A stretch of 58,562 nucleotides of DNA from a bacterium (GTDB lineage: Bacteria; Patescibacteriota; Minisyncoccia; CAIUEV01). Shown here in pieces: positions 19,494 through 42,953 of this stretch (position 1 is the first letter of the stretch; the number at the start of each line of letters is the position of its first letter). The translations under genes and the position numbers were made by a program. Location: positions 1 through 58,562 of the forward strand of contig JAJXZR010000008.1 in NCBI GenBank assembly GCA_021779915.1. Direction: 5' to 3'. The notes under the pieces are model-generated. The model did no database searches, was not told the origin of the DNA, and saw only the letters and a program-made list of their open reading frames with translations.

Positions 19494-20555
19494 TCAAAAC
19501 ACCCCAGGAATGAATCGATAGGGAATTTTTTTGGCGTACTTTCGGTATTCGGGATCACGAAGAAGATGGTTTTCTTCGGTGATGGCGCGGAAATAGTAGA
19601 GAAGCGACCAAAGAACCACATTCACAAATATAAAAAGCATCTGAAAAACACTTGTTTGCCAAGCGGAAATTAGAAAAGGGAGGCTTCCGATCCACCAGGC
19701 GAAATTTTTACTGATATAGGCAGGATGACGGACAAAACGGTAGGGACCGTGAGAAACAATTCCTCGATTCACCAGATTCCCCGCTTTGAATCCGAGAGCC
19801 ACAGAGGCCCAGCCATAGATTACTAGAGAAAGCAGAATCAGAACATTGAAAAATAAATTGGCGTTCTGACTGGCAAAACCAGTGACAGAATCTTTGGATT
19901 CCCAAATAATAAAGTGGTTGGTAATTTGGTTAAAAGGAGGATAACAAGCAAGCGCCACCACCCAGCCGAATAAAGTTGGCTCTACCGAACGAATTATATT
20001 CCCCAGTTTTTTTGATTCCACGAGGTAGGCAAAAGCAAAAACAGCAGTATCTAAAAGAAAAACAATATTAAAGAAAAACCAAAACAGGGAATCATTGAAG
20101 AAAAAAGCAAAATTTCCCATATCCATAGCAGTTCCCAAGAATTTGAAACTAAGTCCGTAAGCAAAAACATTTTCCAAATGAAAAAGCAACCAATTAATCA
20201 TCAAGGGAAAATAAAAAGCCCTGATGAGAAGTGAGAAAAAGGCGGTTTTTTCTTCCCGAGAGACGCTCAATTTTTTGATGGAGAAAAAAGAAGTTAAAAA
20301 ACGCCAAAGAACCTCGAGGAAAATCAATGATTTGGATTTTTTCCTGCTTGGAAAAAAAATTCGAAAAAGCAAGATAAATCCCAAAAATACAATTGCTAGG
20401 TAAAAAAATAAATCAATTGCCCGAAACGTCAGAAAAAGATGGTGTGTTTCGGAAAAATAATCTCGAAAATAAGGGATACGAGTGTAGAAAAAATAAAGAA
20501 AAACAATCACAAAACTATCTGAGAGCCAATTTTTGAATTTTAGGGAATTTTTCAA
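19494..20555 (-). CDS. Polytopic membrane protein with C-terminal ICMT/phospholipid-methyltransferase-family domain
   Basis: About 8 TM segments. GIVSHGPYRFVRHPAYISKNFAWW matches the GPY...RHP.Y motif of isoprenylcysteine carboxyl methyltransferase-like enzymes. Confidence 0.6.
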   Translation of the reverse strand: MKNSLKFKNWLSDSFVIVFLYFFYTRIPYFRDYFSETHHLFLTFRAIDLFFYLAIVFLGFILLFRIFFPSRKKSKSLIFLEVLWRFLTSFFSIKKLSVSREEKTAFFSLLIRAFYFPLMINWLLFHLENVFAYGLSFKFLGTAMDMGNFAFFFNDSLFWFFFNIVFLLDTAVFAFAYLVESKKLGNIIRSVEPTLFGWVVALACYPPFNQITNHFIIWESKDSVTGFASQNANLFFNVLILLSLVIYGWASVALGFKAGNLVNRGIVSHGPYRFVRHPAYISKNFAWWIGSLPFLISAWQTSVFQMLFIFVNVVLWSLLYYFRAITEENHLLRDPEYRKYAKKIPYRFIPGVF

Positions 20556-22442: not shown

Positions 22443-22629
22443 AATTTTTAATTTCCAATTTCGCAATTCATCAATTTTAAAAAACACGTGTCATTCCTGC
22501 GAAGGCAGGAATCCAGAAAAGTAATATTCTATTAGTCTAATATAATTCTCCTGGATCCCGGGTCAAGCCCGGGATGACACACTAAGCGGGTATTGTTTAA
22601 AAAATTACAAAATTAAAAATTAAAAATTC
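22441..22629. repeat. Foldback palindrome of the 734-887 family with a MITE nested at its centre
   Basis: The left arm is agaatttttaatttccaatttcgcaatt. The reverse complement of the right arm is agaatttttaatttttaattttgtaatt. The centre-flanking motifs aattttaaaaaac and gggtattgtttaaaaaatt bracket the element at 22488-22580. Confidence 0.7.
22488..22580. mobile_element. MITE-like element copy B (short form, variant left hairpin)
   Basis: The left end is gtgtcattcctgcgaaggcaggaatccag and the right end is cctggatcccgggtcaagcccgggatgacac. The left stem is a different sequence (ATTCCTGC/GCAGGAAT) but is still an 8-bp hairpin. Confidence 0.75.
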
Positions 22630-24011
22630 TAATAATGTATATGTACCGGAGTTCCAATATCAGCCCAGTAGTAGACTGTTTCGGCGGGACCCACTCCCAT
22701 ACGGACGCAACCGTGGGAAACAGGAACGCCTAAGTGGTTGGCGCCTTCTTTATATCCATTAGGCCATTCTGGAAGCTCGTGAATGCCGTGTCCTTGGTTG
22801 GTAAATCCCATAAAATAGGGCATAAACAACTTATATTTCTTTGACCAAGCACGTTTTCTTTTGTTTAAAATAGAAAAATTACCGGTAGGAGTGGGCATCA
22901 CCCTCTTTCCGGTGGAAACGCGGTAGTTTCCCATATTTACCCCGTCTTCATAAATGGTTAGAATTTGCTTAGTCAAATTAATATCGATATATTTCCCTTT
23001 TTTGATGTAGGGATCATTGTTAGCTGAACCCAGTTTACTAGCCAAACCACTTGTATCAAAAGAATGAAAAGTAGTTTGGACTTCCTGCTCCAATAATCCA
23101 TCATCTTTGCCCTTGATTCCTGGCTTTATTTTCACACTGTAATCAGTGTTCCCTGCCCATTTTTGAGGCTTAAAAAGCATTACCTTATTGTCTTCTTGCC
23201 ATTCAATATTGCCCGCCACATTAGGTGTGATTTCTATAAAATCTTTAATATTATCAGGCACAACCGGTTTGGAAAAAATCGCTTTAACCGGCGTAAATTC
23301 CTTCACATCCGCCGTTTTATCTGCCGGAATAATTTGCTCTACTTTAACCGGAGAAGAAGTCTGGAACTGAAAATTAGCAATTTCCCTTTTATACCAGATG
23401 CGAGCATCTTTTTCTGACGCATAACTCTCAAAAGCCACCACTTGGTATTTCGTATCCCCCGGCAAAGGTTCCTCGGGTTTTATTTCAAACGATTTACGGT
23501 CATCACTCACAAAAAGGGCATATTTGAAAGCGGGCACGATATTAAAATCCAAACGAGAATTTTTATTTCCCTCGTCCAAATCAAATTTAATGGGAGTTTT
23601 GAGGGGATCAATGGTAGCATTGTTAGCTGGACTTACAGCAATGATTTTTGGTAGAGATTTAGTACTCAAAGTGTCAGAAAAGGAAAATCCCATAGCCGTT
23701 GGGGTCAATCCCTTCAAAGAAACTTTATACTCGGTTCCCGGTTGCAAAGGAACAACGGGAATAAAAGTCATTTGATTGCCATTAAAGGAAATTTTTCCCA
23801 CTACTCCCGGAGAAATATTGAAAGAGGACTCGATAGTGTGGGGAACAAAAGGACCATCAAAGCTAATAACGATTGGGTCTTCGATATTAATGAGCTTTGT
23901 TAGAAGCTGAGCCTTCGTTATCTTAAGAAAAGGAATCGCACCGGAAAAGCTAAGAATAGCCGCCAGTACTATTATTATTGCAAAAGAAGAAACAAAAATC
24001 AGTTTTTTCAT
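22629..24011 (-). CDS. L,D-transpeptidase (YkuD domain) with N-terminal anchor and Ig-like repeats
   Basis: The C-terminal catalytic motif is GIHELP...VPVSHGCVRM (HxxxxxSxGCxR). N-terminal TM. The middle has repeated beta-rich modules ending in ...TKYQV / ...TEYKV. Confidence 0.8.
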   Translation of the reverse strand: MKKLIFVSSFAIIIVLAAILSFSGAIPFLKITKAQLLTKLINIEDPIVISFDGPFVPHTIESSFNISPGVVGKISFNGNQMTFIPVVPLQPGTEYKVSLKGLTPTAMGFSFSDTLSTKSLPKIIAVSPANNATIDPLKTPIKFDLDEGNKNSRLDFNIVPAFKYALFVSDDRKSFEIKPEEPLPGDTKYQVVAFESYASEKDARIWYKREIANFQFQTSSPVKVEQIIPADKTADVKEFTPVKAIFSKPVVPDNIKDFIEITPNVAGNIEWQEDNKVMLFKPQKWAGNTDYSVKIKPGIKGKDDGLLEQEVQTTFHSFDTSGLASKLGSANNDPYIKKGKYIDINLTKQILTIYEDGVNMGNYRVSTGKRVMPTPTGNFSILNKRKRAWSKKYKLFMPYFMGFTNQGHGIHELPEWPNGYKEGANHLGVPVSHGCVRMGVGPAETVYYWADIGTPVHIHY

Positions 24012-24184: not shown

Positions 24185-24676
24185 ATGAAGAAATTTTTTT
24201 CAAATTATGCTTTCATTGATAGCCAAAATTTGAATCTTGGAGTCAAGAGTCAAGGATGGCAATTAGATTTTGAGAGATTTAGAATATTTTTGAAAGAAAA
24301 ATATAAAGTAGAGAAAGTTTATCTTTTTATCGGATTTATACCAGAAAACCAATCATTATACATTTATTTACAAAAATCAGGCTATATCTGCATCTTTAAA
24401 CCCACTTTAGAGGTAAATAAAAGAAAAAATCCTAAAATCAAAGGTAATGTTGATGCCGAATTAGTTTTACATACTATGATTGAATATTCAAACTATGACA
24501 GAGCAATAATTGTTTCAGGAGATGGGGATTTTTTCTGCTTAATCGAATATCTAGTCAAAGAAAACAAACTTCTCAAAGTAATTGTTCCAAACCATAGATT
24601 TTCGTCATTGCTCAGAAAATATAGCAACTACATAGCCAACATCCAGCTTTTTAGGAAAAAATTGGAGAGAAAATAA
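24185..24676 (+). CDS. NYN/LabA-like (PIN-related) putative ribonuclease
   Basis: AFIDSQNLNLG near the N-terminus, GNVDAELVL and AIIVSGDGDF match the conserved acidic motifs of NYN (DUF88) domains. Confidence 0.65.
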   Translation: MKKFFSNYAFIDSQNLNLGVKSQGWQLDFERFRIFLKEKYKVEKVYLFIGFIPENQSLYIYLQKSGYICIFKPTLEVNKRKNPKIKGNVDAELVLHTMIEYSNYDRAIIVSGDGDFFCLIEYLVKENKLLKVIVPNHRFSSLLRKYSNYIANIQLFRKKLERK

Positions 24677-24827
24677 AAAAGAGAGGCATTCCCGCGAGAC
24701 AAAACTCTTTGGTAGTCCTCTCATCATGATTGAGTTTATGCTAAAATGATTTTATGTTTTGTCAAATTTTTAAAAAATGATTGTACTTAGATGATAATCC
24801 AGAATCTGCATCAGGTTAGATCCTGCC

Positions 24828-24854
24828 AAAAAACCCCGAATCTCGGGGTTTTTT
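24828..24854 (+). terminator. Rho-independent terminator
   Basis: aaaaaaccccga-atc-tcggggtttttt. Confidence 0.7.
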
Positions 24855-24936
24855 GTTTTCTCTCTTTCCTCTTTAAACTTTCTAAACTTTCCTGCCCCGT
24901 ACCGAATGGTACTGGGGTCTAAACTCTAATATCCAA

Positions 24937-24965
24937 AACTCCCCCGCTTTTTGGACGGGGGAGTT
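24937..24965 (-). terminator. Terminator downstream of the 404-aa Cys-rich gene
   Basis: aactcccccg-ctttttgga-cgggggagtt. On the minus strand it is followed by ttttgg. Confidence 0.65.
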
Positions 24966-24997
24966 GGGAAAATTTAGAGCAGATTAATGTAAAGATT

Positions 24998-26212
24998 TTA
25001 TTTCTCTTCGCACTTGCAACAAACTCCCGGTTTGTTCTCCAGTTGCATTACCCAACCGGCCGGTTTCATATCTGATCCTTCACTTTTAATTTTGCTTTTG
25101 GGATCAGATTGACCATTGCCGTTGGAAAAAGTGACTTTTCCGGTTCCTTTGAAATATTGTTCCAGATTACCGTCCCTTTTGGTATATTCTACTTGAGTCT
25201 TGCCAAAATCTTTGATAATTATGGTGCATTTGTTGCCTTCGGGTTTCGGGCATCCTTCCATATTGCACTTGCAGTCTCGATTAAGAGGCGCTTTGTCGGG
25301 AGGAGTCGGCTTGTCCCATTTTTGACATTCACCTCCACAATTTCCTTCGCACACTGGATTACATTTACCAACACACCCTTTATCATTGAAAACCCAACCT
25401 TCCTGTTGACACATAGAGGCAGGAATTTTGCAAGTATTGCAACAGCAGTGACATTTTGCCAGTTCTTCACAAGTGGGAAGTTGCCAAACATTCTGTTCCC
25501 CTTCCGGTCCACCTCCCTTTGTTGGAGCCGCCATATCTTTTCCCTCAATTCCGCCCTTTCTCCAGTGAAGAATGTAAGTGTTTTGACCGCATTCTTTCTT
25601 GAATTGATTGGGTTCTAATTTGTAAGGGTTTTTAGTTGTTCCGTTGGGCTGATCGGAAGTTTGACCACTGCTTGGCTGGCTTGCCGGGGCGCTGGCTTGT
25701 GGTGCCGGCTGAGTGGCTTGAGGATTGGTATTAGTGTTGGTATTAGTGCTGGAAGTTGGATTAGTCGTCGTGGTTTTGTAAACAGTGGCCACATTGTTTC
25801 CAAAAAGTGTTGTTTTTAAATTGTCCCACCAACTACTTAATGTACCTTCTGAACTTCCTTGATCATAACTAGAAGAAGAGCTTGTATTCTGACTTCCTGT
25901 CCCACTTGTCACTCCACTTTGATATTCACTGCCAGTTGTTCCACTTGTATTTGCAGAACTACTTGTATTTGGGCTATTTGAATTCTTCGATCCCCAAAGT
26001 TTAGTCCAATAAACTTGAATTTGAGTTGCTACTCTATCGAGCAAATTTTGAAACCAATTGTTGGAACTGGCTGAAACAGTGGTTGTAGTGGCGCCTTGAG
26101 CCACCTCAAAAGACAACACTCTATTGCTTTGAGGTTTATAAGAGAGATTAAAAGAAAAAATACCAACAAGAAAAAATACCAATAGAACTAAAAATCGTTT
26201 TTTCACTGCCAA
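24998..26212 (-). CDS. Membrane-anchored/secreted cysteine-rich protein (C-module paralog of the 1181-aa protein)
   Basis: N-terminal TM KKRFLVLLVFFLVGIFSF, an S/T-rich linker, then a domain with about 20 Cys by my count. That domain is collinear with the C-terminal third of ORF 29245-32790 (KNPYKLEPNQFKKECGQNTYIL / LPTCEELAKCHCCC / TQVEYTKRDGNLEQYF / AGWVMQLENKPGVCCKC). TTG start. Confidence 0.6.
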   Translation of the reverse strand: MAVKKRFLVLLVFFLVGIFSFNLSYKPQSNRVLSFEVAQGATTTTVSASSNNWFQNLLDRVATQIQVYWTKLWGSKNSNSPNTSSSANTSGTTGSEYQSGVTSGTGSQNTSSSSSYDQGSSEGTLSSWWDNLKTTLFGNNVATVYKTTTTNPTSSTNTNTNTNPQATQPAPQASAPASQPSSGQTSDQPNGTTKNPYKLEPNQFKKECGQNTYILHWRKGGIEGKDMAAPTKGGGPEGEQNVWQLPTCEELAKCHCCCNTCKIPASMCQQEGWVFNDKGCVGKCNPVCEGNCGGECQKWDKPTPPDKAPLNRDCKCNMEGCPKPEGNKCTIIIKDFGKTQVEYTKRDGNLEQYFKGTGKVTFSNGNGQSDPKSKIKSEGSDMKPAGWVMQLENKPGVCCKCEEK

Positions 26213-26230
26213 AAGATTATTGAATTAAAA

Positions 26231-28864
26231 TCATTCCCCTCCAGAACCACCTGCTGATTGAGTAGCTGTGCTATCTTGATTAGGAGTTTCTTTGGCACTC
26301 TCAGGGTCAGGTTGTTGCCCGTATTTTTCCGGATCAAACCCACTAGCATCTTCAAGCATTCCTAATGCTTGATCTAGTGAAATTCCACTTGCTTGCATAG
26401 AATCCAAAAAACTTTGAGCTTCAGATCCTGACATAGAACCAATGTCTCCACCATTCCAATTCCAATTACCATTTTCACCGGTACTTACACTTGATTGTAA
26501 AGGATTCGAATCTCCACTAGTCGCAGGATTGTCTGAACCCCCAGGAGGAGTTGCCGTAGTAGGGACATCACCAGTAGTAGGAGGTGTGATACCTTCTTTA
26601 TAGGCTCCTGGGGTGTCTCCTGACACATTAATCCCTTTATCAACACCATCCCAAAAATTTTTATTCTCTGCGTCTGTTGTTGGGTCTATTTGTTTTGCTC
26701 CTGGAATTCCTGTGGTGTCACTTCTATCAGCTACTGCTCCTTGTAGACCAACTCCTCCTGCATCTTCTTGTGTTGATGACAAAGGTTTGATTGTAGCATC
26801 TGGAGAAGCATTAGATGGTGATGCGGTCGGATCATAGCCAGAAGGCGCGGTACCACTGATACTTTCTTGACCAGTATTGCTAATTGTATGTGTCGCCCCG
26901 CTACTATCAGTATAGCCTCCAGTCCCGTTGTTACCATAAGAAGAGGAGGGTGCGGTCGGATCATAGCCAGAAGGACTGCCATTCACATAAGTTTTTCCAT
27001 TTGGGTCGGTAAATACATTACCTCCCGTTTTTGGATCAAAAACATTCTGGCTCCCATCTGCCCACTTTGCAGTTATCGTTCCATCTGGATTTTTTGTTTC
27101 AGTGTAAGCCGGTGTTCCAGTTGTACTTGGTTTTTCTTGGCTCGATGGACTTCCAGGGCTTCCTTGATTACTTGGCTGTTGTTGTCCTCCTCCACCACCT
27201 CCTCCACAGCTTCCGCTACCTCCTCCACTTGATCCTCCGCCTTTGTTCATTTGATTCATCATATCCTGTAATTGCTTCATTATATCAGAATTTTGATTTT
27301 GATTTTGATTTTGATTTTGTTTATCCAGATCGATACATTGTTGGGTCATAGTTTGGGTGGGAGTACAGAGGGTGGAGGGGTTGGATTGGATAAAGCCATC
27401 AGAGCAGAGGGAATTGGGGTCGACTTGGGTGGGGTATTGGATCCAGTATTGTCCTTGGCACTGGCTGGGAGGACAAGCGACAGCTTGAAGCCGACCTTTT
27501 TTCTTAAGGTCGGTACAAGAACAACCAAAGTCGGAGCTGGTTTCGTCCATGTTAACTGATTCGCCAGAAGCAGTACTCACACATTTATCTTTGCCATTGG
27601 GGACGTTGTCGTTGTCGTTGTCTCCCGCCGCCTGATCTGCCGTAACGCATTTTCCCGTGGGATCTCCACAAGATCCATCGGGGCAAACGCATCGGTAAAC
27701 TTTAGAAATACCCGAATTAGTGTTGCTGTTGAGGTCAGTCATACTGACTGAATAAGTCATGGTGTTTTGGCTTTTACAGAAAGCCGAGCCTTGATCTGAT
27801 TGATTGTCATTAGAATTGAGATTTTTCTGGTACCAAGTTCCTCCTCCCGCTTGACAAGTGGACTTGAGTTCGATCGCATCATGGCACGATCCGTCCCCCA
27901 CACCGGCTGATCCAAAATCAATCTGACCGGCATCACAATTATCCGTTCCATTAGCGGTCACGCAAGTTCCATTGATCCACTCTCCTCCGCTGTTCACACA
28001 AGTAGTTTTATCCAGTCCAGTGGCTTCCGCCGCCTTTTGGCTCAGGACAAAGTTCATCAGGAGCAACATAAAAAGTTGCTGGGTACGCGGATCATTCATA
28101 TCGAACATCTGAGTCGGATCAGCTCCATTGGCAAGACCCAATTGAGTGGCCAGGTCAGAAGCGTTGATATTGGAATTGGATATAGTGGAACCGCTACCTG
28201 TTAGACCAAGCTGGGTGGCAAGATCTGAAGCATTGATATTTGTATTAGAGGTGATGGAATTATCATTGGTAATAATAGTTCCATCAATACTATTATTATC
28301 AGCCGCCTTCGCCTGGTTTAAAAGAAAATCCCAAAGACTTTTTCCCGCATTGCTTTGCAATTTCGGTTTGGAATTTTTTATTCCCATTTGGGAAATTACG
28401 ATGTCCTTAAGTTGGTCAAGCATATACCTTTTTCCCTGGAAAGCAGTTGCAATCTCCTTTTCCACCTGACTTTTCACGATGTTTTCTTTGTCCTTGCTGA
28501 TGGTTTTTCCGTCAGCAAAAAAGACCGAGGTAAGCGGATACCAAAAACCCTTACCAGTTTTGGTGTTTTTGAAATATTTGGGCGGAGTGATGTAAAGAAA
28601 GTCCGTGTCGCCTCCAGGAATCTTGGAAACACCTCCTGAAGGAATGGGGATTTTCACGGTTTTGCCTAAAAAACTAGCAAAATTAACCTTCTTCGCCATG
28701 TCCGCCAAATCTTGCGAAAGCACCACATTGCAACTTTGAAGATTGGAAACCACTTCTTTGATATCCTTCGTCGGATCAATCGAATCGGCTTTGGTGTTTT
28801 GAAATGGAAAAACAAGCACTAGACTCATCAAGAAACCTGGAAAAAGAAATTTTACTTTTATCAT
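26231..28864 (-). CDS. Large secreted cysteine-rich protein (N-module paralog of the 1181-aa protein) with long disordered G/S/T/P tail
   Basis: Signal peptide. FLGKTVKIPIPSGG...IPGGDTDFLYITPP, tandem SNINASDLATQLGL x2, hydrophobic helix DPRTQQLFMLLLMNFVL, a thrombospondin-type-3-like motif DNDNDNVPNGKDKC, CPPSQCQGQY, then (QN)5 and a G/S run. Confidence 0.6.
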   Translation of the reverse strand: MIKVKFLFPGFLMSLVLVFPFQNTKADSIDPTKDIKEVVSNLQSCNVVLSQDLADMAKKVNFASFLGKTVKIPIPSGGVSKIPGGDTDFLYITPPKYFKNTKTGKGFWYPLTSVFFADGKTISKDKENIVKSQVEKEIATAFQGKRYMLDQLKDIVISQMGIKNSKPKLQSNAGKSLWDFLLNQAKAADNNSIDGTIITNDNSITSNTNINASDLATQLGLTGSGSTISNSNINASDLATQLGLANGADPTQMFDMNDPRTQQLFMLLLMNFVLSQKAAEATGLDKTTCVNSGGEWINGTCVTANGTDNCDAGQIDFGSAGVGDGSCHDAIELKSTCQAGGGTWYQKNLNSNDNQSDQGSAFCKSQNTMTYSVSMTDLNSNTNSGISKVYRCVCPDGSCGDPTGKCVTADQAAGDNDNDNVPNGKDKCVSTASGESVNMDETSSDFGCSCTDLKKKGRLQAVACPPSQCQGQYWIQYPTQVDPNSLCSDGFIQSNPSTLCTPTQTMTQQCIDLDKQNQNQNQNQNSDIMKQLQDMMNQMNKGGGSSGGGSGSCGGGGGGGQQQPSNQGSPGSPSSQEKPSTTGTPAYTETKNPDGTITAKWADGSQNVFDPKTGGNVFTDPNGKTYVNGSPSGYDPTAPSSSYGNNGTGGYTDSSGATHTISNTGQESISGTAPSGYDPTASPSNASPDATIKPLSSTQEDAGGVGLQGAVADRSDTTGIPGAKQIDPTTDAENKNFWDGVDKGINVSGDTPGAYKEGITPPTTGDVPTTATPPGGSDNPATSGDSNPLQSSVSTGENGNWNWNGGDIGSMSGSEAQSFLDSMQASGISLDQALGMLEDASGFDPEKYGQQPDPESAKETPNQDSTATQSAGGSGGE

Positions 28865-28894
28865 TTTGATTTTTATTTAGTAATCTGATTTAAG

Positions 28895-29141
28895 ATCGAT
28901 CCAATTATTCTAATTACTCTAATTAGTCTAATTATTCTAAACAAAATCCCAAGAAAAGATTTAAGAATCACGATTTAAGATTTAAGAATATTTTTATTTT
29001 GATATTTTCCTTAAATCCTAAATCCTAAATCTTAAATCGATTTATTTACTTGGTGCTTTTTTAGGTTAATTAGTGTAATTAGGTTAATTAGAATAATTTG
29101 TTATCTTTCCTGGATCCCCAGCCGACACGCCGAGTATGCCA
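28895..29141. mobile_element. MITE-like element copy G (subfamily 1, inverted relative to copy F; one end truncated, the other degenerate)
   Basis: The interior aattattctaattactctaattagtctaattattctaaacaaaat...ttaaatcctaaatcctaaatcttaaatcgatttatttacttggtgcttttttaggttaatt is the reverse complement of the interior of 48493-48769. The right end is cctggatccccagccgacacgccgagtatgccac. It lies between the two paralogous Cys-rich loci. Confidence 0.65.
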
Positions 29142-29244
29142 CTTATTTTAAGTTCCTCAATATCTTAAATCTTATCGGTCATTCAATTCTATAACCAATT
29201 TTATAAACGTCAAAATCAAAGCAAAAGTCACTCGATTTCTTAAA

Positions 29245-32200
29245 TTACCACTTTATAAACCAATCCCAAGCTTTTTTCCAAAAACTATCACTTGGCTGAT
29301 TTATTGGTTTGCCCGTCACTGGATTAATCCCAGGAGGAGCTCCTGTGAGTGGTTGTCCAGTTGTTGAATCATATCCAGTTGGTGCACCTGTAACTGGTTT
29401 TCCCGTAATCGGATCAACTGGTGGACTATTAACTCCTTGTGGCGTTGAGGGATTTGTCACTGGATTAGTTGGCTGAGGTTGGGGAGTAATAGGCTTTCCG
29501 GTCGTTGGGTCAATATTCGGTGGGCTTCCTGGAATCGGCTTACCCGTATTTGGATCGATTGGCGGATTATTAGGAGGTTGCACTGGGTTAGTTGGGTTAG
29601 TTGGAGGTTTATTATCCGTCGGCAATTCCGTTCCTCCCGGATCCTTGTCACATTTACAACAAGTGCCTGCTTCGTTTTTGAGTTGTTTCACCCAGCCGGC
29701 ACCACTATTGGAGTCGTCAAAATCGTCTTGAGTGGCTCGAATTATCGATCCTTCGTCTCGATTAGTAAATTTGGCATTGCCTTTGATACCTCCACCAAAA
29801 TATTGAGTGTCTGTCCCTGCTTTTCTGGTATATTCCACGGTTGAGCCGGAGCTCGTATCGGCTGGAATAATGATTTTGCACTCTTTATATCCTTCGTTTT
29901 CTTCACATCCTTTGTTGTTGGCACCAGTGCCTTGACCGCTACAGTCATAACTACAAATTCCATTGTGGCTTGCCGATTTTTCTCCACCTTGTTTTTGGAA
30001 AGCCTCGCATTTTTTAGGAATAACGGTTTGCTTGTCACCTTTGGTACAGGCAAACGGATCGTCTCCCATGGTTAGTTTCAAGGACAGCTCTGGCTTTTCA
30101 CCTTGGCAACTAGTCATGGAATCAGGACATGATTTGCAGGATTTTCCTTCGTCTGTCACGCATTTTCCTTTGGCACATTCTTTTCCAATCGAAAAACCGC
30201 ACTCTTTTTTCTGGCAATCGCAACAAGAACAAGCACAACAATGGCAACCCGCTAATTGTTCGCAAGTCGGCAATTTGAAATATTTTTCTCCCCCCGTGAT
30301 ATCTTGCATGCTCTTGAGTTCTCCCTCCAATGAAGTCGGTTGGTTTGGCTGAGTTTGGCTTTGTCCAGTTTGAACAATCTGACTCATCTCGCCTCGAAGT
30401 TGGTTCATCGCTTGCGTATTTCCTCCCGCATTATTATATTTATTGACCAATTCCTTCATTTTTTGCTGTTGCTCAGGTGTTAATTTGTTCCAAACCGCGC
30501 TAATGGCCGCATTAGCGTCTTTGTTGGGATCCTGAGCCGGACACGTTCCGTTGTTGCAACCCTTGTTTGTTAGGGTCGGCACGTTGCCCGTTTGACTTGT
30601 AGCCGGTTTGTTTCTGAAATTTCCGGCGCCCGGCTTGGCATTCGTCAGAACATAAGTGTTTTCGTCACAAACCTTGGTAAACTGGCTAGTATGTAGGACA
30701 TAAGGATCTTTCTGGCTTCCATTTTTCTTAGAATTAACATCTCCCACACCCTTGGGATCAGTAGCTGCCTTGTTATCGTTGGCATTTGCATTGGCATTTT
30801 GATTTGTAGGTGGAGTATTGGGATTGTTAGGGTTACCTCCACTACTACTGGAGCTAGAACTGGAACCAGACCCCCCCTTGTTTTGACCACCGCCTTGATT
30901 TTGGTTCTTATTTTTATCTTTCAATAACTGTTTGAGCAAGTCCTCAAGATTATTATTATTGTTATTATTATTGTTATTATTATTGCATTGATCACTCTGC
31001 ATCCGCATCATTACTGGACAATTACTCGTTCCATAGCCTCCCATTCCACTGAGGCTCGAAGAAGTGTTGGGATTTATATAAGTACCAGCAGTTGAAGCAC
31101 TGGAATTGACTACTCCGTTCTGACACAAATTAGCCGGATTATACTGATTGGTTCTATCATAACGGACTAAATAATTCCCTTCGCACTGGTCTGGCGGGCA
31201 TTGAGGAGGTTGCAGATTGCGCTTGGCAATGATCTGAGAGCAGGAGCATCCGCGATCAATATTTCCTTCGATGTTGTTGGCGATCTCTCCTTGGGGCGTG
31301 CCTGGGCATCGATCCTTACTATTTTCCACTCCGTCTTTGTCATCATCCAGACTGGAAACTTCTTTTTTGATACAGGCACCAAAGGAAGAGAGGCAATACC
31401 CGCTGTTATTGTTTCCATTACCACTCATTCCGGAACAATCACAACTATTGGTTCCGGATTTACCGTTGGAATTATAATTGGAACCAAGGCTGTTACACTG
31501 AGCAGGAGTTGTTCCGCACTGATTCAGACAGCTCTCCGAGTTCGAGAAAAAAGCTCGCCAGCTTCCCCCCGAATCCTCACAAAGCTGTTGTTTGCTATCT
31601 TTTTCCGCTACACACACCCCCTCCTCATTAAGACAACTTCCTTTTGAGCAATGGCATCCATACGCAACATCTGAATTAGTATTGGAATTGTTGTTGGTTG
31701 AATAAATATCCGTCGAGAGATTGGCACATTTCAAGTCAGAATTACCACAGAGATCTTTGTCTCGATAACATTCGTTTTTAAATTTACCCCAAGAGCCACC
31801 ATTGTTTTCGCATAATTGTTGGATCTCATTAACGCATTCGCCATTATTCCAATTACCGCCTCCTGCAATACACACTTCTTTATCCTTGTTGAGAGACTTG
31901 GCCATTTCTTGGTTGAGAAGTAACATAAGAAGCACTAGCGTCAAAAGTTGTTTGGTTTGAGGATCAGAAGAATCCATATTCTGCACCTGGTTCAGAAGAT
32001 CGGTAATCTGCTGTTTATCATCAACTAGCAAGGTGTTGCCGTTCGTTAAAGAACTATTGGAATTGGCATTAGTTGACCCTTGAAACTGACCAAGAAGATC
32101 TTGAATCTGACTGTTAGAATTCCCAATCGAACCAGTCGAGTCAGTGGTCGGTACATAATTTTCTCCCACATTGATCTGAGTATTGTCATTCGTTGAAACA

Positions 32201-32790
32201 AAATCCCCTCCCGTATCCGCCTGGACTGGATTAAAGAAAAAACTCAGGAATGATCCTGTGCTAGGAGCCCTTGAAATTTGTTGGCTGTCGCCGATCATAT
32301 TCCTAATTATTTCCAACATCACTTTGTTGTTGTCCCCCACTCCGTTGATAATATTTTCAATATTGGCAACAAATTGATGACCCTGATCATCCACTTCTTT
32401 TCCGGATGTAAAATAAATGGCTCGAAGAGGGACAGAAGTGTTTTTGTCTAAGATGCGAGGAGGATAGATGTAAACATAATCTTGATCTCCGCCAGGAATT
32501 CCATCGGGATTATTCGATGCCAAAGGAATCTTCACCGTCTTCCCTAAAAAACTTTGTAAATTGATTCTTTGAAGAATGCTCAAGGAACTGATACTGTAGG
32601 AAATTTTGTCGTTTGGCTGACCTTTTTCAAAAAGATCCGCTTTGACTGGATGGATAAGATAAATCGAAGTAAAAACGCCCGCCACTCCAACCGAAAAGAA
32701 ATTTATTGCAAAAACAAACGTTAATAATTTTGCAACTAGGGAGGCAATTTTTTTTGTTTTTTCTTTTTTGTATTTACGAGCTTTAAACAT
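29245..32790 (-). CDS. Giant secreted cysteine-rich protein (fused N-module + C-module), Pro-rich repeat tail ending in a Trp-rich segment
   Basis: N-terminal TM/signal. FLGKTVKIPLASNN...IPGGDQDYVYIYPP, DPQTKQLLTLVLLMLLL, a TSP3-like motif DDDKDGVENSKDRCPGTP, CPPDQCEGNY, N12 and G/S linker. The C-module has KDPYVLHTSQFTKVCDENTYVL, LPTCEQLAGCHCCAC, STVEYTRKAGTDTQYF and AGWVKQLKNEAGTCCKC. The tail has repeats [DN]P.TGKP[IV] and ends DSFWKKAWDWFIKW. Confidence 0.6.
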   Translation of the reverse strand: MFKARKYKKEKTKKIASLVAKLLTFVFAINFFSVGVAGVFTSIYLIHPVKADLFEKGQPNDKISYSISSLSILQRINLQSFLGKTVKIPLASNNPDGIPGGDQDYVYIYPPRILDKNTSVPLRAIYFTSGKEVDDQGHQFVANIENIINGVGDNNKVMLEIIRNMIGDSQQISRAPSTGSFLSFFFNPVQADTGGDFVSTNDNTQINVGENYVPTTDSTGSIGNSNSQIQDLLGQFQGSTNANSNSSLTNGNTLLVDDKQQITDLLNQVQNMDSSDPQTKQLLTLVLLMLLLNQEMAKSLNKDKEVCIAGGGNWNNGECVNEIQQLCENNGGSWGKFKNECYRDKDLCGNSDLKCANLSTDIYSTNNNSNTNSDVAYGCHCSKGSCLNEEGVCVAEKDSKQQLCEDSGGSWRAFFSNSESCLNQCGTTPAQCNSLGSNYNSNGKSGTNSCDCSGMSGNGNNNSGYCLSSFGACIKKEVSSLDDDKDGVENSKDRCPGTPQGEIANNIEGNIDRGCSCSQIIAKRNLQPPQCPPDQCEGNYLVRYDRTNQYNPANLCQNGVVNSSASTAGTYINPNTSSSLSGMGGYGTSNCPVMMRMQSDQCNNNNNNNNNNNNLEDLLKQLLKDKNKNQNQGGGQNKGGSGSSSSSSSSGGNPNNPNTPPTNQNANANANDNKAATDPKGVGDVNSKKNGSQKDPYVLHTSQFTKVCDENTYVLTNAKPGAGNFRNKPATSQTGNVPTLTNKGCNNGTCPAQDPNKDANAAISAVWNKLTPEQQQKMKELVNKYNNAGGNTQAMNQLRGEMSQIVQTGQSQTQPNQPTSLEGELKSMQDITGGEKYFKLPTCEQLAGCHCCACSCCDCQKKECGFSIGKECAKGKCVTDEGKSCKSCPDSMTSCQGEKPELSLKLTMGDDPFACTKGDKQTVIPKKCEAFQKQGGEKSASHNGICSYDCSGQGTGANNKGCEENEGYKECKIIIPADTSSGSTVEYTRKAGTDTQYFGGGIKGNAKFTNRDEGSIIRATQDDFDDSNSGAGWVKQLKNEAGTCCKCDKDPGGTELPTDNKPPTNPTNPVQPPNNPPIDPNTGKPIPGSPPNIDPTTGKPITPQPQPTNPVTNPSTPQGVNSPPVDPITGKPVTGAPTGYDSTTGQPLTGAPPGINPVTGKPINQPSDSFWKKAWDWFIKW

Positions 32791-32923
32791 TAATTTAATC
32801 TTAGAGAATTTAATTAAGTTTATATTCGAATTTATTATGAGATAGATAATTTAATTTATCAAGTTTCCGCAAAACGCAAAATTACTTTAGAAAGTTAGGA
32901 AAAAAAGATAACACAAAGTTCTC

Positions 32924-33064
32924 GTGTCATCCCGGGCTTGACCCGGGATCCAGTTAAACTCATAGGATGTTAGTTTAATGCGTGTTATTAAGAAACTAAA
33001 CATAACAAAATTTTGTGAGGCTAATTCTACGCTCCTGGATCCCGGGTCAAGCCCGGGATGACAC
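32924..33064. mobile_element. MITE-like element copy C (subfamily 2)
   Basis: Perfect canonical ends gtgtcatcccgggcttgacccgggatccag / cctggatcccgggtcaagcccgggatgacac. The interior is about 90 percent identical (by eye) to the reverse complement of copy D. Confidence 0.8.
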
Positions 33065-33092: not shown

Positions 33093-34004
33093 ATGCAATC
33101 AAAAACAAAAATAAACATCTTGCTTTTTATTTTCGCTTTTTCAGCCGTGTTCGCTTTGTTTCGTTTTACTAATTTCAGTGAAAGTGGATTGGGACAATAT
33201 TTCAATGAAAAAATCACTAATTTATCAAGGATAATAAATGACAAGACTCCCGAAGCAGCTCTTAGCAATTTGGAAAAAGAAAATCTTCAAGAGTCTTTGA
33301 GTGGCGCGGTGAAGCCTCCAGAATTTTTTTGTAAAAGTACTTATTTCCCCTTGCTCTCTGGTGCTAAGTGGAATTATGAAGTCACTTCGGGAGATGATAA
33401 AGATTCTATAACTTTCGGAATACCAGCTCCTGAAAATGGAATAAATTTTTTTGATTCCATCCTTCAAAGCAAAAAAGACTGGACTGTCCGCTCGCTTTTT
33501 GTTTGTAAAGACAACAAAATAGAAATGACTGATTTAAATTTTCTCATGACCGCCTCTAAAAGCGGACTCCTCGGCGAACCCTGCACCAAGGGAGCTTATG
33601 ATTTTTTCTTGCCAACCGACCAAATGCTAGATTCTACCTATTCTTTCGAAGAAAACGGGTGCTTGAATTATAAAAAAATTGGTGAAGAAAATCAGGATTC
33701 AACAATCAAAGAAAATATTTTCTCCAAATGGAAAATTGCAGGAAACGAAGAAGTGTCAGTCCCAGCCGGAAAATTCACCACCAAAAAAATCGAAATTAAT
33801 TTTACATTAAGACAAGAGTTTTCAGGCGGAGCCAAAACCACTGAATCTAAAACTACTCTTTGGGTTGCCCAAGGAGTGGGGATTGTAAAAATACTCTCAG
33901 AAACACAAGAGGCAGGAACTAACCCAGTAAAAACTACGATTACCAAAGAAGAGCTAAGCTCATTTCAGATTCCAACGGAGGGAGATAGCAAGATTAAAAA
34001 TTAA
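33093..34004 (+). CDS. Hypothetical secreted/anchored protein, bracketed by inverted MITE copies
   Basis: N-terminal hydrophobic segment INILLFIFAFSAVFALF. No recognisable motif. The ORF starts 29 nt after copy C and ends 45 nt before copy D. Confidence 0.5.
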   Translation: MQSKTKINILLFIFAFSAVFALFRFTNFSESGLGQYFNEKITNLSRIINDKTPEAALSNLEKENLQESLSGAVKPPEFFCKSTYFPLLSGAKWNYEVTSGDDKDSITFGIPAPENGINFFDSILQSKKDWTVRSLFVCKDNKIEMTDLNFLMTASKSGLLGEPCTKGAYDFFLPTDQMLDSTYSFEENGCLNYKKIGEENQDSTIKENIFSKWKIAGNEEVSVPAGKFTTKKIEINFTLRQEFSGGAKTTESKTTLWVAQGVGIVKILSETQEAGTNPVKTTITKEELSSFQIPTEGDSKIKN

Positions 34005-34049
34005 ATTCTATAAAAATTATATTTTATCACATATAATAATAACGTTACT

Positions 34050-34190
34050 GTGTCATCCCGGGCTTGACCCGGGATCCAGGAGAATAGAATTAGCCTCACA
34101 AAATTTTGTTATGTTTAGTCTCTTAACAATACGCGTCAAACTAACATCCTATGAGACTAACTGGATCCCGGGTCAAGCCCGGGATGACAC
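34050..34190. mobile_element. MITE-like element copy D (subfamily 2, inverted relative to C)
   Basis: Perfect canonical ends. The interior is caggagaatagaattagcctcacaaaattttgttatgtttag...catcctatgagactaactgg. Confidence 0.8.
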
Positions 34191-34346
34191 GGAGTGAAAA
34201 TTAAAAATTCTCTCCCAAGTAGACTTTTCTATTTTTTTGTATTTTATTTAAACGGTAGGGCAAATCTTGTGCTTCTATATTGTTTTTTGTGAATAATTTC
34301 TTATTCGATTACGTGAAAGACAATCTAAAAATTAAATTCGAGACCA

Positions 34347-36226: not shown

Positions 36227-36736
36227 TTAAGGGCTAACGCAAGAATCCAAGGTATCACAGCGACACCCTTTAGTGCTGTCACAAATAAAATTAGAAGCAC
36301 TTGGATTAGTATAACCAGCAACAGTAAAACTATAGGTAGAATTAACTGAAGTAGCAGTAAAACTTGAAACCCACTTACCAGTCGCATCACAACTGGCAGT
36401 ATTTGTGCCAACAGTTGCAGTATAGGTCAAAGAGTTAGAACAATTAGGAATCTGAGCATATTCCGTTGATCTTGCAACTGGATTTGTGTCTGAACAAGCG
36501 ATACTCAAATAAGCCCCACCAGCAGTTAAAGTACCCATTACAGTTCTACACCCATCAGCTGCTGCTTGTTCTATAGCACTTGTAAAGGAATTAGCATCCG
36601 CTTTCGCCTTCGCTCCAGCCGCTTTTTTTCTCCCTCCTGAAACACTCACCACCACAATCGTAGCAAGGATTCCAATAATCAGCACAACTACCAACATTTC
36701 AATAAGGGTAAACCCTTTTCCGCTTTTAGTCTTCAT
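36227..36736 (-). CDS. Type IV pilin / pseudopilin (N-terminal methylation motif)
   Basis: MKTKSGKG|FTLIEMLVVVLIIGILA is a class III signal peptide. C-terminal Cys residues are present. Confidence 0.8.
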   Translation of the reverse strand: MKTKSGKGFTLIEMLVVVLIIGILATIVVVSVSGGRKKAAGAKAKADANSFTSAIEQAAADGCRTVMGTLTAGGAYLSIACSDTNPVARSTEYAQIPNCSNSLTYTATVGTNTASCDATGKWVSSFTATSVNSTYSFTVAGYTNPSASNFICDSTKGCRCDTLDSCVSP

Positions 36737-36770
36737 TTTTATATTTTAAAAATATCAACGATCGGTGAGT

Positions 36771-37310
36771 TTAGAAACTATCACAATCTCCTGCTGTCCC
36801 TGAAGAACAAACGCATCCCGAATTAGTACACGTATATGTCGCAGAATTCTTGAGACCGGAAACCTGCAAAGTATAATTGATTGTCGTGCTTGTGTTAGGA
36901 CAAGTACCTGAAGCAGTCCAGCTAGAGGTGGTTCCTGTATTGATACAAGTCCCTACTGTAAGGCTGTATCCGCCGATAGTTGGGAGCTGAATGGTTGCAT
37001 AATTAACACCGCCACAGGAAAGAACAGTCCCATTTCCTGAGTTTGTGAAAGTAAAATTTGTACAACCCTCAATAGAATTAGCTTTCTCTATCGAGTCCTT
37101 CATTTGACCCATGTCAGCCTTTGCCCTCGCAGCATTAGCTTTTTGTCTAGCACCCGCCACTGAATAAATAACTATCGCAGCTAAAATTCCAATAATAACG
37201 ATAACAACCAACATTTCGATAAGGGTAAAACCTTTACTCGTTTTCTTTTTTTTTATTTTAGGTTTTACCTTACTACAACAACCACACTTTTTACTAGTTT
37301 TTACACCCAT
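36771..37310 (-). CDS. Type IV pilin / pseudopilin with unusually long Lys/Cys-rich leader
   Basis: MGVKTSKKCGCCSKVKPKIKKKKTSKG|FTLIEMLVVIVIIGILA. The ATG at 37310 is the only canonical in-frame start upstream of the G|F cleavage motif. Confidence 0.75.
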   Translation of the reverse strand: MGVKTSKKCGCCSKVKPKIKKKKTSKGFTLIEMLVVIVIIGILAAIVIYSVAGARQKANAARAKADMGQMKDSIEKANSIEGCTNFTFTNSGNGTVLSCGGVNYATIQLPTIGGYSLTVGTCINTGTTSSWTASGTCPNTSTTINYTLQVSGLKNSATYTCTNSGCVCSSGTAGDCDSF

Positions 37311-37427
37311 TTGATTTTGTTATTTATTAAATGGTTTTTTATTTTAACTGCAACAACACTTGAATTAATTATCTTTTTATAATTTAATTTGTCAAATTTA
37401 TTAAATTTAGTGGTTTAATTAAAAAAC

Positions 37428-37458
37428 AAAAACCGCACTTACGCACGGTTTTTGTTTT
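37428..37458 (-). terminator. Terminator immediately after the 135-aa pilin gene
   Basis: Minus strand aaaaaccgtgc-gtaa-gtgcggttttt followed by a T-run. An internal operon terminator after a pilin gene is the usual signature of the major pilin. Confidence 0.55.
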
Positions 37459-37518
37459 TTTGTACTCCTAAAATTTGATATGTCTTATAAGACTTATACG
37501 ACTTACATTTAGAAGGAG

Positions 37519-37926
37519 TTATGGGCAGACAGTGGCTGTACCAATCGTGGCAGCTTCCGCCTTGGAAGCCCCCGTAGAATCGACACACCAATAACCTGCT
37601 CCGGCACCTACCAAGGCAGCTTCAGCCGCCCAAGCAGATGCTGAATCATTACAAGCAAAAGCTGTTCCACCTGAACTTGTCACCCCAGTTGAAATTTTAG
37701 CGGCTTCCGCATCACTACACCAACCGGTATATGTTTGACCATTATCTTCGCTGAACATTTCACCGGCGGATCTGAGCTGAGCCATCTGAGCTTTAACGGC
37801 TCCATTTTTTCCTTTATTTCTTGCAGTATTCAATGAAACCATAACAATTGCCGCCAAAATTCCAATAATGGCAACAACTACCAAAAGCTCCATCAGGGTA
37901 AAACCATTTTTATTCTTATATTTCAT
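37519..37926 (-). CDS. Type IV pilin, probable major pilin
   Basis: MKYKNKNG|FTLMELLVVVAIIGILAAI. Small (135 aa), first pilin gene after pilC, followed by its own terminator. C-terminal Cys pair. Confidence 0.8.
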   Translation of the reverse strand: MKYKNKNGFTLMELLVVVAIIGILAAIVMVSLNTARNKGKNGAVKAQMAQLRSAGEMFSEDNGQTYTGWCSDAEAAKISTGVTSSGGTAFACNDSASAWAAEAALVGAGAGYWCVDSTGASKAEAATIGTATVCP

Positions 37927-37985
37927 TTCCCCACCTCCTTTCTCGTTTTTCCATCATTTTTATTTTAATATTATGATGTCCAAAA

Positions 37986-38105
37986 TTAGTTAAAAGTTGA
38001 AAGTGAAAAGTGAAAAGTTGAGGAATCGCCAAAGGCGATAGTCAATTAAAATCGCCTTTGGCGACACCAAGGACTTTCTACTTTTTACTTTTAACTTTCA
38101 ACTAG
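37986..38105. repeat. Intergenic foldback palindrome with double-hairpin core
   Basis: Arms (aaaagttgaaagtgaaaagtgaaaagtt / actttctactttttacttttaactttcaac) flank the core aggaatcgccaaaggcgatagtcaattaaaatcgcctttggcgacacc (38021-38068). Confidence 0.75.
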
Positions 38106-38106
38106 T

Positions 38107-39294
38107 TCATATCGCTCCCGCCATATTATAAATCGGCATAATAACCGACGCAACAATCACCGCAGTTCCCACGCCCAAGAGTAATATCATAACCGGCTCA
38201 ATCAAGGTCATCATGTTCTGGGTCATATTGTCCACTTCCCTGCCATAATACTCTGCGATTTTATTCAATGTATCAACGGTCTTGCCCGATTCTTCACCGA
38301 CTCTTAGTATCTGAGAAACTACATTGGGGAAATATGGACTTTTTTCCAGTACCCCGCTAATCATTTTCCCTTTTTGCACTTCTTTTACACATTCCGAAAG
38401 AACGTTGTAATAAACATAGTTACCCATTATTTTTCCGGTTATTTCCAGAGACTGAGTAATTGGGACGCTCTCCCCCAAGAGCATCCCTAAATTTTCCGCA
38501 AATCGGTTCATATACATATATTGGAGGAGACTTCCCGAAATCGGAATTTTTATTTTAATAAAATCCCATTGCTTTTTTCCTTCCTCGGTATGGGTATAAT
38601 AGAAAGCGCCAAGAGCAATCAATACCACAACGAACAAAACAAGATACCAATAACCGACAAAAAAACCGCTAACCGCCATTACAAGTTTTGTCGTCCAGGG
38701 CAATTTTACACCCGACTCTGATAAAGTTTTTGTAAGGGTTGGCATCACGAAAATCATGAGAAAAACAAAAACTCCAGCGAAACTCAAAGATATTATCAAA
38801 GGATACATAAGCGCTCCCATGATTTTTCTTTTAAGTTCAAACTGTTTTTCCCGATAGCTTGCCAGATAGTTTAAAACACGCTCCAGTCTTCCAGAAGCTT
38901 CCCCCGCTCTTATGACGTTTATATATAAAGGGGAAAATTCTTTTGGAAACGATTCCAAAGCTTCCGATAAGGACTTTCCTTCTTCTATTTTTTTGCAAAC
39001 TCTTGTAATTAAAGACACTACTCCGACGGTATAATTTTGATTTTTCATTGTGGAAAGAGCTCTGATAAGCGGGACTCTTGCTTCAACTAAAATAGAAAGC
39101 TCTCGAAGTAAAGTTACAATTTCCTTTTCTTTGGGACGATTAAACAGGTCTTCAATTTTTTGAGTAAAATTAGATTCTCCGCTTTCTGAAAGAAACTCAG
39201 GTTTATCCTCTTTTCTCACGGGAAAACTGCCAGGTATTTTTAACTTGGAATCTATAATCCCGCCATTACTTTCTAAATTTGAGTACGGAGCCAT
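38107..39294 (-). CDS. pilC: Type IV pilus platform protein PilC (GspF family)
   Basis: Two GspF repeats, three TM segments, and conserved ...L..G..L..AL....FP..........GE.SG.L... in both halves. Confidence 0.9.
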   Translation of the reverse strand: MAPYSNLESNGGIIDSKLKIPGSFPVRKEDKPEFLSESGESNFTQKIEDLFNRPKEKEIVTLLRELSILVEARVPLIRALSTMKNQNYTVGVVSLITRVCKKIEEGKSLSEALESFPKEFSPLYINVIRAGEASGRLERVLNYLASYREKQFELKRKIMGALMYPLIISLSFAGVFVFLMIFVMPTLTKTLSESGVKLPWTTKLVMAVSGFFVGYWYLVLFVVVLIALGAFYYTHTEEGKKQWDFIKIKIPISGSLLQYMYMNRFAENLGMLLGESVPITQSLEITGKIMGNYVYYNVLSECVKEVQKGKMISGVLEKSPYFPNVVSQILRVGEESGKTVDTLNKIAEYYGREVDNMTQNMMTLIEPVMILLLGVGTAVIVASVIMPIYNMAGAI

Positions 39295-39337
39295 ATAAAA
39301 ATATTCTTAAAAAATGCCTTGGTTGAATTCTATAAAC

Positions 39338-40414: not shown

Positions 40415-40488
40415 TTTGGATATTTATATTAATTTTTGTTAATCCTACTACGAAAAATTATCCTGAGTCCCTTTCGCTAACTTCGTTG

Positions 40489-40875: not shown

Positions 40876-40884
40876 AGCAAATTA

Positions 40885-40958
40885 GTTTATCAAGTTATAA
40901 AGTTTATAAAGTTTATCAAGTAAAAATTTTGATGAACTTGATGAACTTGATGAACTCA
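40885..40958. repeat. Intergenic foldback palindrome (words TTATCAAGTT / TTCATCAAGTT)
   Basis: tttatcaagttataaagtttataaagtttatcaagt faces ttgatgaacttgatgaacttgatgaactcat. Confidence 0.6.
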
Positions 40959-42602: not shown

Positions 42603-42625
42603 AGATTCTTCTTCTTTAAAATTTT

Positions 42626-42931: not shown

Positions 42932-42953
42932 TATTTAAAATTATTTGGTAATA

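Follow-up and report, generated by a model that had tools for sequence, protein, structure and literature searches.

Fused and split genes of a predicted two-module family of exported cysteine-rich proteins in a Moranbacteria-like genome

Bacteria of the candidate phyla radiation (CPR) are believed to live attached to other cells, and we know of almost no contact molecules from CPR lineages outside Saccharibacteria. In bacteria with type IV pili, the exported protein PilY1 is large (about 1000-1200 amino acids, aa), has a calcium-binding site and is encoded near pilin genes. Large cysteine-rich extracellular proteins have been described in CPR Peregrinibacteria/Peribacteria, where a role in attachment was proposed without test, and the Peribacteria proteins resemble Myxococcus cysteine-rich repeats and FG-GAP proteins weakly (Anantharaman et al. 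2016, PMC4736985). Here, three neighbouring genes of a Moranbacteria-like (CPR) genome, named W1181, W877 and W404, were analysed together with their relatives, the W-family. The genes lie on contig JAJXZR010000008.1 of assembly GCA_021779915.1, and the window is the whole stretch analysed, 58,562 nucleotides (nt) in length. Like the Peregrinibacteria proteins, those of the W-family come from CPR bacteria, are large and Cys-rich, carry signal peptides, occur as clustered paralogues and vary between strains. There is no detectable sequence relationship between the two groups, since the W-family has no NCBIfam or Pfam match at E<=1, and neither the two-module fused/split architecture nor the thrombospondin type 3 (TSP3) repeat reported below is described for the Peregrinibacteria proteins. 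Literature searches on cysteine-rich or thrombospondin proteins of CPR/Patescibacteria gave no description of the W-family and only the Peregrinibacteria precedent. By sequence, the W-family is an undescribed member of a kind of protein already noted in CPR, with an unusual fused/split and shuffled architecture. The explanation that we favour, with moderate confidence, is that it is an exported, disulfide-rich surface system of two modules, N and C, which would act together in a contact role.

The window is an ordinary chromosomal stretch of a small genome, with genes for SecDF, FtsH, a GatA-like amidase, aminoacyl-tRNA synthetases, EF-G, SecY and PGK. The three genes, taken from a listing of open reading frames (ORFs), are arranged as follows:

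29245-32790, minus strand: W1181, fused gene, 1181 aa, ATG start
26231-28864, minus strand: W877, N-only gene, 877 aa, ATG start
26213-26230: gap of 18 nt between the W877 stop and the W404 TTG start
24998-26212, minus strand: W404, C-only gene, 404 aa, TTG start

These positions and strands are those given in the original prediction, which was made from the window's letters before any database search; its term 'giant' is an overstatement for proteins of 404-1181 aa. BLASTP aligned W1181 aa 38-567 with W877 aa 10-498 (27% identity, E=2e-43) and W1181 aa 833-1049 with W404 aa 238-403 (32% identity, E=2e-14), and the C-module profile additionally matched W404 aa 183-235, the site of the K[ND]PY..L..QF.K.C..NTY motif. 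The parts of W1181 therefore run in the same order as W877 and then W404, a collinearity that had been proposed, and the N- and C-module motifs quoted in the proposal were all present in the family alignments. The gap between W877 and W404, also noted at that time, widens to 24 nt if W404 starts at a GTG two codons further on, which is the start used in database protein P0045.

Relatives were identified by protein and profile searches. The first protein search returned seven relatives of 1069-1206 aa, all of the fused architecture and all without Pfam domains; a further 13 C-only proteins (298-428 aa) and three N-only proteins came from profile searches. Exhaustive scanning of 1.84 billion representatives with HMMER yielded 518 matches at E<=0.001. 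A census was then taken of the best 150 of these 518 together with the relatives found earlier; its entries are mostly representatives of 50%-identity clusters, with 24 from 90%-identity searches. About half of the best 150 of the 518 matches share the TSP3 repeat alone. Among the matches listed there were 12 fused database proteins besides W1181 (one of them, P0030, of just 905 aa), 17 N-only proteins besides W877 (P0029, of 877 aa, may be W877 itself) and 36 C-only proteins besides W404, several of them fragmentary; no Pfam domain was found in the fused, N-only or C-only proteins. A further 13 of the matches listed contain the Cys-rich region alone, and both of the two that were scanned have an N-terminal T4SS_pilin domain, while nine contain the N-terminal domain alone, which follows DUF11 repeats in the two scanned. 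DUF11 and T4SS_pilin, as found in these related architectures, are surface or envelope domains. The relatives bearing names are from Candidatus Moranbacteria/Moraniibacteriota metagenome-assembled genomes, in agreement with the CPR-like source suggested from the window alone. The family is so far narrowly distributed, in Moranbacteria-type (CPR) genomes and metagenome contigs.

To survey pairing, all ORFs of 34 loci (numbered L001 onwards) were classified with both module profiles, and duplicate contigs were removed, which gave 17 C-only genes. Fused and split forms were both found. An N-family gene directly adjoined the C-only gene on the same strand in 13 of the 17 cases (the window, L001, L006 twice, L010, L011, L012, L013, L014, L017, L022, L023 and L025). 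One gene intervened in two cases (L004 and L010), a divergent N gene lay 1.8 kb away in one (L018), and the C-only gene of L026 had an upstream flank of just 497 nt and no N gene downstream. Pairs with the N gene first and pairs with the C gene first both occurred. The separate genes thus match consecutive, non-overlapping parts of W1181 and are conserved as neighbours, which is the pattern of Rosetta-stone pairs, where neighbours that are separate in some copies form one chain in others and physical or functional interaction is classically inferred. By this logic the fused and split forms suggest that the N and C modules work together. The W-family differs from such pairs in having both forms side by side in one genome and in the shuffling of partner subtypes.

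Locus L014, from a separate metagenome and an independent assembly, contains an orthologous pair in the same order as W877 and W404. Its C protein is 84-85% identical to W404 over the C module and 63.5% over the whole protein, and its junction has a stop, a gap of about 65 nt and a signal peptide of its own, in DNA that has diverged from the junction in the window. Were W877 and W404 a decayed or mis-assembled fused copy, arising from a nonsense mutation or an assembly error, the short gap and the unusual TTG start would be its only marks. More than 12 other loci, from different samples, have the same split, the orthologous junction differs while keeping its own stop, gap and signal peptide, and the W877 and W404 ORFs are long and intact, retain all family-invariant Cys, and have closer relatives among the N-only and C-only genes of other loci than in W1181. 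An assembly error at the junction is not borne out, as the independently assembled L014 also has a stop and a gap. Because the split is conserved in these loci and in the L014 orthologue, it is functional and not an artefact, as the original prediction had suggested; the pseudogene explanation is extremely improbable and was rejected, being refuted to the extent that sequence evidence allows.

Neighbour-joining trees, one per module, placed all fused proteins in a single clade and the C-only proteins in a separate group of several subclades. N-only lineages were diverse and were paraphyletic to the fused clade under midpoint rooting, the rooting being insecure. W877 was 53% identical to the N-only gene product of L011 and about 27-31% identical to W1181; the corresponding values for W404 were 84% (L014 C gene) and about 33-35% (W1181). 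The fused clade and the closer relatives outside it indicate that W877-W404 is an old paralogous lineage and not a broken copy of W1181. The split is not an event local to this genome; pairs of N-only and C-only genes are widespread and old. On the module trees, a single ancient fusion appears at least as likely as fission.

Fused orthologues of close relatives were 36-41% identical, compared with 72-78% for PilB, 83-84% for PilT, 75-85% for RNase Y and 32-54% for the product of a DUF3108-like gene beside W1181. A mirror-tree comparison of 11 split pairs (the window, L001, L004, L006/L024 twice, L010, L011, L012, L014, L017 and L022) showed that N and C divergence were uncorrelated (r=0.09, Mantel p=0.23), in a small sample with one truncated N sequence. 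Two N subtypes and three C subtypes were present in five of the six possible combinations; the window and L011, for example, have a common N subtype (53% identity) and different C subtypes (35%). A positive correlation had been expected, and its absence, together with the five combinations, was read as partner shuffling, which suggests that N and C cassettes are exchanged between pairs. A contact role would fit the fast divergence, the expansion of paralogues and the free recombination between N and C subtypes.

The three proteins are composed of the following parts:

W1181 aa 1-57: signal/anchor, ending VKA/D
W1181 aa 58-190, window 32221-32619, minus strand: N-terminal domain, FLGKTVKIP ... 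IPGGDxDYxYIYPP ... SGK, zero Cys
W1181, between N-terminal domain and Leu-rich helix: N/S/D/T linker
W1181 aa 277-309, window 31864-31962, minus strand: conserved Leu-rich hydrophobic helix, DPQTKQLLTLVLLMLLLNQEMAKSLNKDKE
W1181 aa 305-606: Cys-rich region, 26 Cys
W1181 aa 482-499, window 31294-31347, minus strand: single TSP3-like calcium-binding repeat, DDDKDGVENSKDRCPGTP
W1181, between Cys-rich region and C module: N/S/G linker
W1181 aa 681-1051, window 29638-30750, minus strand: C module, 26 Cys
W1181 aa 1052-1181, window 29248-29637, minus strand: Pro-rich tail of about five DPxTGKPxxGxPP units and Trp-rich end, SFWKKAWDWFIKW
W877: signal peptide, N module (aa 36-515), acidic G/S/T/P/D-rich tail of 362 aa
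W404: signal/anchor (aa 1-25), Trp-rich amphipathic segment (aa 51-75, window 25988-26062), NNWFQNLLDRVATQIQVYWTKLWGS, S/T/N-rich linker, C module (aa 183-404)

Every family member has an N-terminal hydrophobic signal/anchor, often followed by an AxA-type site. In W1181, W877 and W404 the N-terminus is the sole segment hydrophobic enough to serve as signal or anchor, as judged by hydropathy. W404 thus has a hydrophobic start of its own, as the original prediction had stated, and W1181 is transmembrane-like only at its own N-terminus. The cysteines are confined to the conserved modules (52 of 52 in W1181, 20 of 20 in W404 and 19 of 20 in W877, whose remaining Cys is in the tail), the linkers are of low complexity, and the family alignments have 16 invariant Cys columns in the N module and 11 in the C module. 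The Cys-rich region of W1181 consists of a C-x2-GG-x-W unit, two Cys units of about 80 aa, the one TSP3-like repeat and a CPPxxCxGxY segment; the N module of W877 lacks the second Cys unit. Across the family the C module has a core of about 220 residues with 16-22 Cys and with CHCC and CCKC clusters. The motifs of the W1181 copy are PYxLHxxQFxKxCxxNTYVL, LPTCEQLAGCHCCxCSCC, CKIII and GWVxQL...CCKC. This copy also has a helical insert of about 110 aa that is absent from C-only proteins, including the compact W404, which ends in CCKCEEK.

Across the family the N module comprises a Cys-free domain, a Leu-rich helix, duplicated Cys-rich units (C-x2-GG-x-W) and one putative calcium-binding repeat of TSP3 type. 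N and C are made either as a single polypeptide (W1181) or as two chains, predicted to be secreted separately, from adjacent genes (W877 and then W404). In the arrangement that we favour, they would form a complex at the cell surface, held off the membrane or wall by the low-complexity stalks. The complex would then make contact with other cells or surfaces, for example when an episymbiont attaches to its host.

An exported, Cys-rich, predicted calcium-binding protein with Pro-rich and S/T-rich stalks, present as several paralogues per genome, could also be a structural component of the envelope, S-layer-like or part of a wall matrix, that protects without binding specifically. Wall enzymes are encoded nearby (an L,D-transpeptidase at 22629-24011 and an LCP protein at 49398-50999). 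The rapid divergence and the shuffling of subtypes are, however, more typical of interaction surfaces than of proteins that form lattices, searches of Pfam and NCBIfam gave no SLH or S-layer domain, and the family distribution is narrow. A structural role is considered unlikely.

Two elements outside the Cys modules recur across the family. The Trp-rich amphipathic motif (NWFQNLL...VYWTKLWG, TWNSFKNFIKEVWNWG) stands directly after the signal peptide in many C-only proteins, forms the extreme C-terminus of most fused proteins (in W1181, window 29248-29290; P0001 and P0028 are without a comparable end) and is kept in the L014 orthologue despite the low-complexity linker around it. The tail of W877, whose last residues are SAGGSGGE, has a short conserved motif close to its end, and the N-only tails of the W877 subclade have in common a short acidic helical motif near the C-terminus. 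From their sequence, the Trp-rich segment and the acidic tail motif could be docking or envelope-binding elements. The Leu-rich region was modelled by AlphaFold2 as a single long helix, and its hydropathy is that of a borderline membrane span in some homologues. A second true transmembrane span at this position was rejected: W1181 and W877 have sub-threshold hydropathy here, and such a span would place the Cys-rich/TSP3 region in the cytoplasm. The N-terminal domain is the one that follows the DUF11 repeats in P0042 and P0078. In P0130 and P0143 the Cys-rich/TSP3 region of the W-family is fused to an N-terminal T4SS_pilin domain, and a gene for a T4SS_pilin/TrbC-like protein with the same Pfam domain lies at the end of the window (57788-58402, minus strand); the fusions link the Cys-rich region to a membrane-anchored pilin-like scaffold.

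The W1181 segment at aa 482-499 matched Pfam TSP_3 (PF02412) at E=6e-5 and 23.1 bits, below the cut-off of 25, and the corresponding segments of two homologues scored 17.9 and 22.5 bits. Reciprocally, the family profile matched the five TSP_3 repeats of P0024, an OmpA-family protein, and dozens of TSP3 arrays. A TSP3-like motif had been proposed for both the fused and the N-only protein; the proposal holds for W1181 at this sub-threshold level, and the copy in W877 is degenerate, with zero Pfam match on the segment. The motif itself, D-x-D-x-D-G-V-x-N-x-x-D-x-C-P-x-T-P, matches that of bacterial TSP3 repeat proteins such as P0024. Unlike these, the W-family has a lone repeat, with one copy per protein and no tandem array across the aligned members, and the rest of the protein is unrelated.

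Known families and folds were then searched for each module. W1181, W877 and W404 gave zero matches in Pfam, NCBIfam (both at E<=1) and PHROGs; the Myxococcus cysteine-rich repeat model, which we take to be TIGR02232, was not confirmed to be in the copy of NCBIfam searched. Profiles of the modules against PDB sequences gave best E values of 0.56 and 0.63, which are spurious. AlphaFold2 models were built from a 21-sequence alignment for the C module (predicted local distance difference test, pLDDT, 65.9; predicted template modelling score, pTM, 0.70) and a 12-sequence alignment for the N module (pLDDT 51.9, pTM 0.30). With Foldseek, the C-module model was compared to PDB and BFVD, and the N-module model to PDB; the best E values were 0.30-0.47 with TM-scores <=0.18, a negative that is moderately informative for the C module and uninformative for the N module, whose model is too poor (pLDDT 52). 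The statement that the modules lie outside known families is borne out by these searches, apart from the sub-threshold TSP3 match. As neither module has a fold match, both may be new disulfide-rich folds.

The same domain searches bear on whether the C module could be an effector or toxin that is secreted and is delivered or presented by the N module, with cassettes swapped as in polymorphic toxins. C subtypes are indeed swapped between N subtypes, and the module is C-terminal in the fused form and is also made separately. Searches of Pfam, NCBIfam and PHROGs, though, gave no toxin, peptidase or nuclease domain, no small immunity-like gene is consistently downstream in the loci inspected, and the C module keeps a conserved Cys framework, whereas polymorphic toxins have hypervariable tips. 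An effector function is highly unlikely.

Several points weigh against the two-module surface system with a contact role. Weak structure models and the lack of a fold match give no structural support for adhesion. No LPXTG anchor was found at the C-termini, which were read directly, and no C-terminal transmembrane-like segment is present in W1181, W877 or W404. No Dsb or VKOR gene was seen within the window, and the CHCC and CCKC clusters could bind metal in place of forming disulfides. The absence of co-divergence between N and C fits interchangeable partners, yet it weakens the case for a specific N-C interface. A role in host contact is proposed by analogy.

The pilus genes and the genes between them and W1181 are arranged as follows:

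36227-45454, minus strand: type IV pilus cluster, with pilM, a 234-aa ORF without Pfam match, pilO, pilB, a response regulator, pilT, pilC and three pilins
between the pilus cluster and W1181, plus strand: rny
33093-34004, plus strand: DUF3108-like gene with an N-terminal hydrophobic segment, divergent from W1181

The cluster is on the same strand as the three W genes, as originally reported. The order of pilus operon, pilins, rny, DUF3108-like gene and fused gene is found in the window, L004, L006, L008 and L033, and L022 and L034 are syntenic as far as their contigs extend. In L018 it is the C-only gene that adjoins the pilins. These arrangements raise the possibility of a type IV pilus accessory, a non-pilin adhesin of the tip or base like PilY1/PilC, in which calcium would regulate pilus function; the fused proteins resemble PilY1 in their size (about 1100-1200 aa), export, calcium-binding motif and nearby pilin genes. 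They differ from PilY1/PilC in being Cys-rich, in having split pairs away from pilus genes and in lacking homology to PF05567, the PilY1/Neisseria PilC domain (no Pfam match at E<=1 and no PDB sequence or fold match). The N-methylation signal PF07963 is matched by the window's three pilins at 36.2-37.9 kb and is absent from W1181, W877 and W404, and W1181 is not a member of a minor-pilin operon, as two opposite-strand genes, including the housekeeping gene rny, lie between it and the pilins. In L002, no rny, DUF3108-like or pilus genes neighbour the fused gene within its 8.6-kb upstream flank, and no pilus genes were found within up to 10 kb of the split pairs of L010, L011 and L013 where the contig allows. 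The pilus linkage first proposed thus stands where the fused gene belongs to a close relative (PilB 72-78% identical) and fails for L002 and these split pairs. With synteny limited to close relatives, the linkage is real but may reflect inherited gene order, and it is weak evidence for a role in pilus function, which is quite unlikely.

The DUF3108-like gene is a more constant neighbour of the fused gene than the pilus genes are. It is divergent from the fused gene in eight loci (the window, L001, L004, L006, L008, L022, L033 and L034), where rny and the pilus operon come next wherever the flank is long enough, and the two genes evolve equally fast. Its product is a candidate partner of the fused protein. 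The order rny, DUF3108-like, fused, N and C is repeated in L022 and occurs with small variations in L004, L006, L030, L032, L033 and L012. Further large unannotated genes are present in the paralogue clusters of relatives (L006 13483-15864, L004 17120-18046, L008 13650-19472 and L010 4087-5517), one of them for a 793-aa protein that has the TSP3/CPP segment alone in common with the W-family. These genes have no counterpart in the window and are possibly additional components.

A more specific possibility, which we regard as distinctly doubtful, is a modular two-component host-docking device with new folds and interchangeable N and C cassettes, confined so far to Moranbacteria-type genomes. The N module would be a scaffold whose Leu-rich helix drives oligomerisation or enters a partner membrane, and the C module a swappable specificity head that docks through the Trp-rich amphipathic segment. 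The fused form beside the pilus operon would be constitutive and, with pilus retraction, would draw the episymbiont onto its host. Short of this device, the exported two-module proteins are concrete candidates for surface recognition in Moranbacteria, as they are apparently lineage-restricted, fast-diverging and present in several copies per genome, and the coexistence of fused and split forms provides a natural experiment on the interaction of N and C modules. CPR genomes encode many surface-protein families that are uncharacterised, of which the W-family is one, and its importance is uncertain.

The intergenic regions of the locus contain repeats and putative transcription signals:

7281-7503 and 48488-48769: full copies of a family like miniature inverted-repeat transposable elements (MITE)
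32921-33064: short complete MITE-like copy, in the divergent intergenic region of W1181 and the DUF3108-like gene
34047-34191: inverted twin of the copy at 32921-33064
28895-29141: degenerate MITE-like copy between W1181 and W877, one terminal repeat decayed and the other gone
29186-29213, minus strand: promoter-like site upstream of W877, just upstream of the degenerate copy
24827-24855: terminator-like palindromic hairpin with flanking A and T runs, downstream of W404 (pattern match)

The MITE-like family has terminal inverted repeats of about 32 nt, GTGTCATCCCGGGCTTGACCCGGGATCCAGG, with a CCCGGG-loop-CCCGGG hairpin. Of three repeat sequences originally marked at the locus, the one upstream of W1181 is the short complete copy and the one between W1181 and W877 is a degenerate copy; the third, a possible remnant at 24890-24935, was rejected, as it does not align to the family and is part of a set of hairpins downstream of W404. 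The two short copies, inverted and 94% complementary, flank the DUF3108-like gene like a composite element. In relatives the insertion is absent and the intergenic region between the genes corresponding to W1181 and the DUF3108-like gene is about 100 nt. W877 and W404 are probably one transcription unit, and the hairpin at 24827-24855 is its likely end. This hairpin, one of three consecutive GC-rich hairpins downstream of W404 (24827-24990), is bidirectional and is common to a convergent NYN-domain gene (24185-24676).

Upstream of the locus are genes for a DSP-type protein phosphatase (17514-18119), a sulfotransferase (12184-13119) and an ICMT-like methyltransferase (19494-20555), whose predicted products could modify surface or wall components. 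At 1589-3313 (plus strand) a SecD homologue has a PpiC-type rotamase domain inserted between the first SecD domain and the P1 head, an unusual translocon-chaperone fusion.

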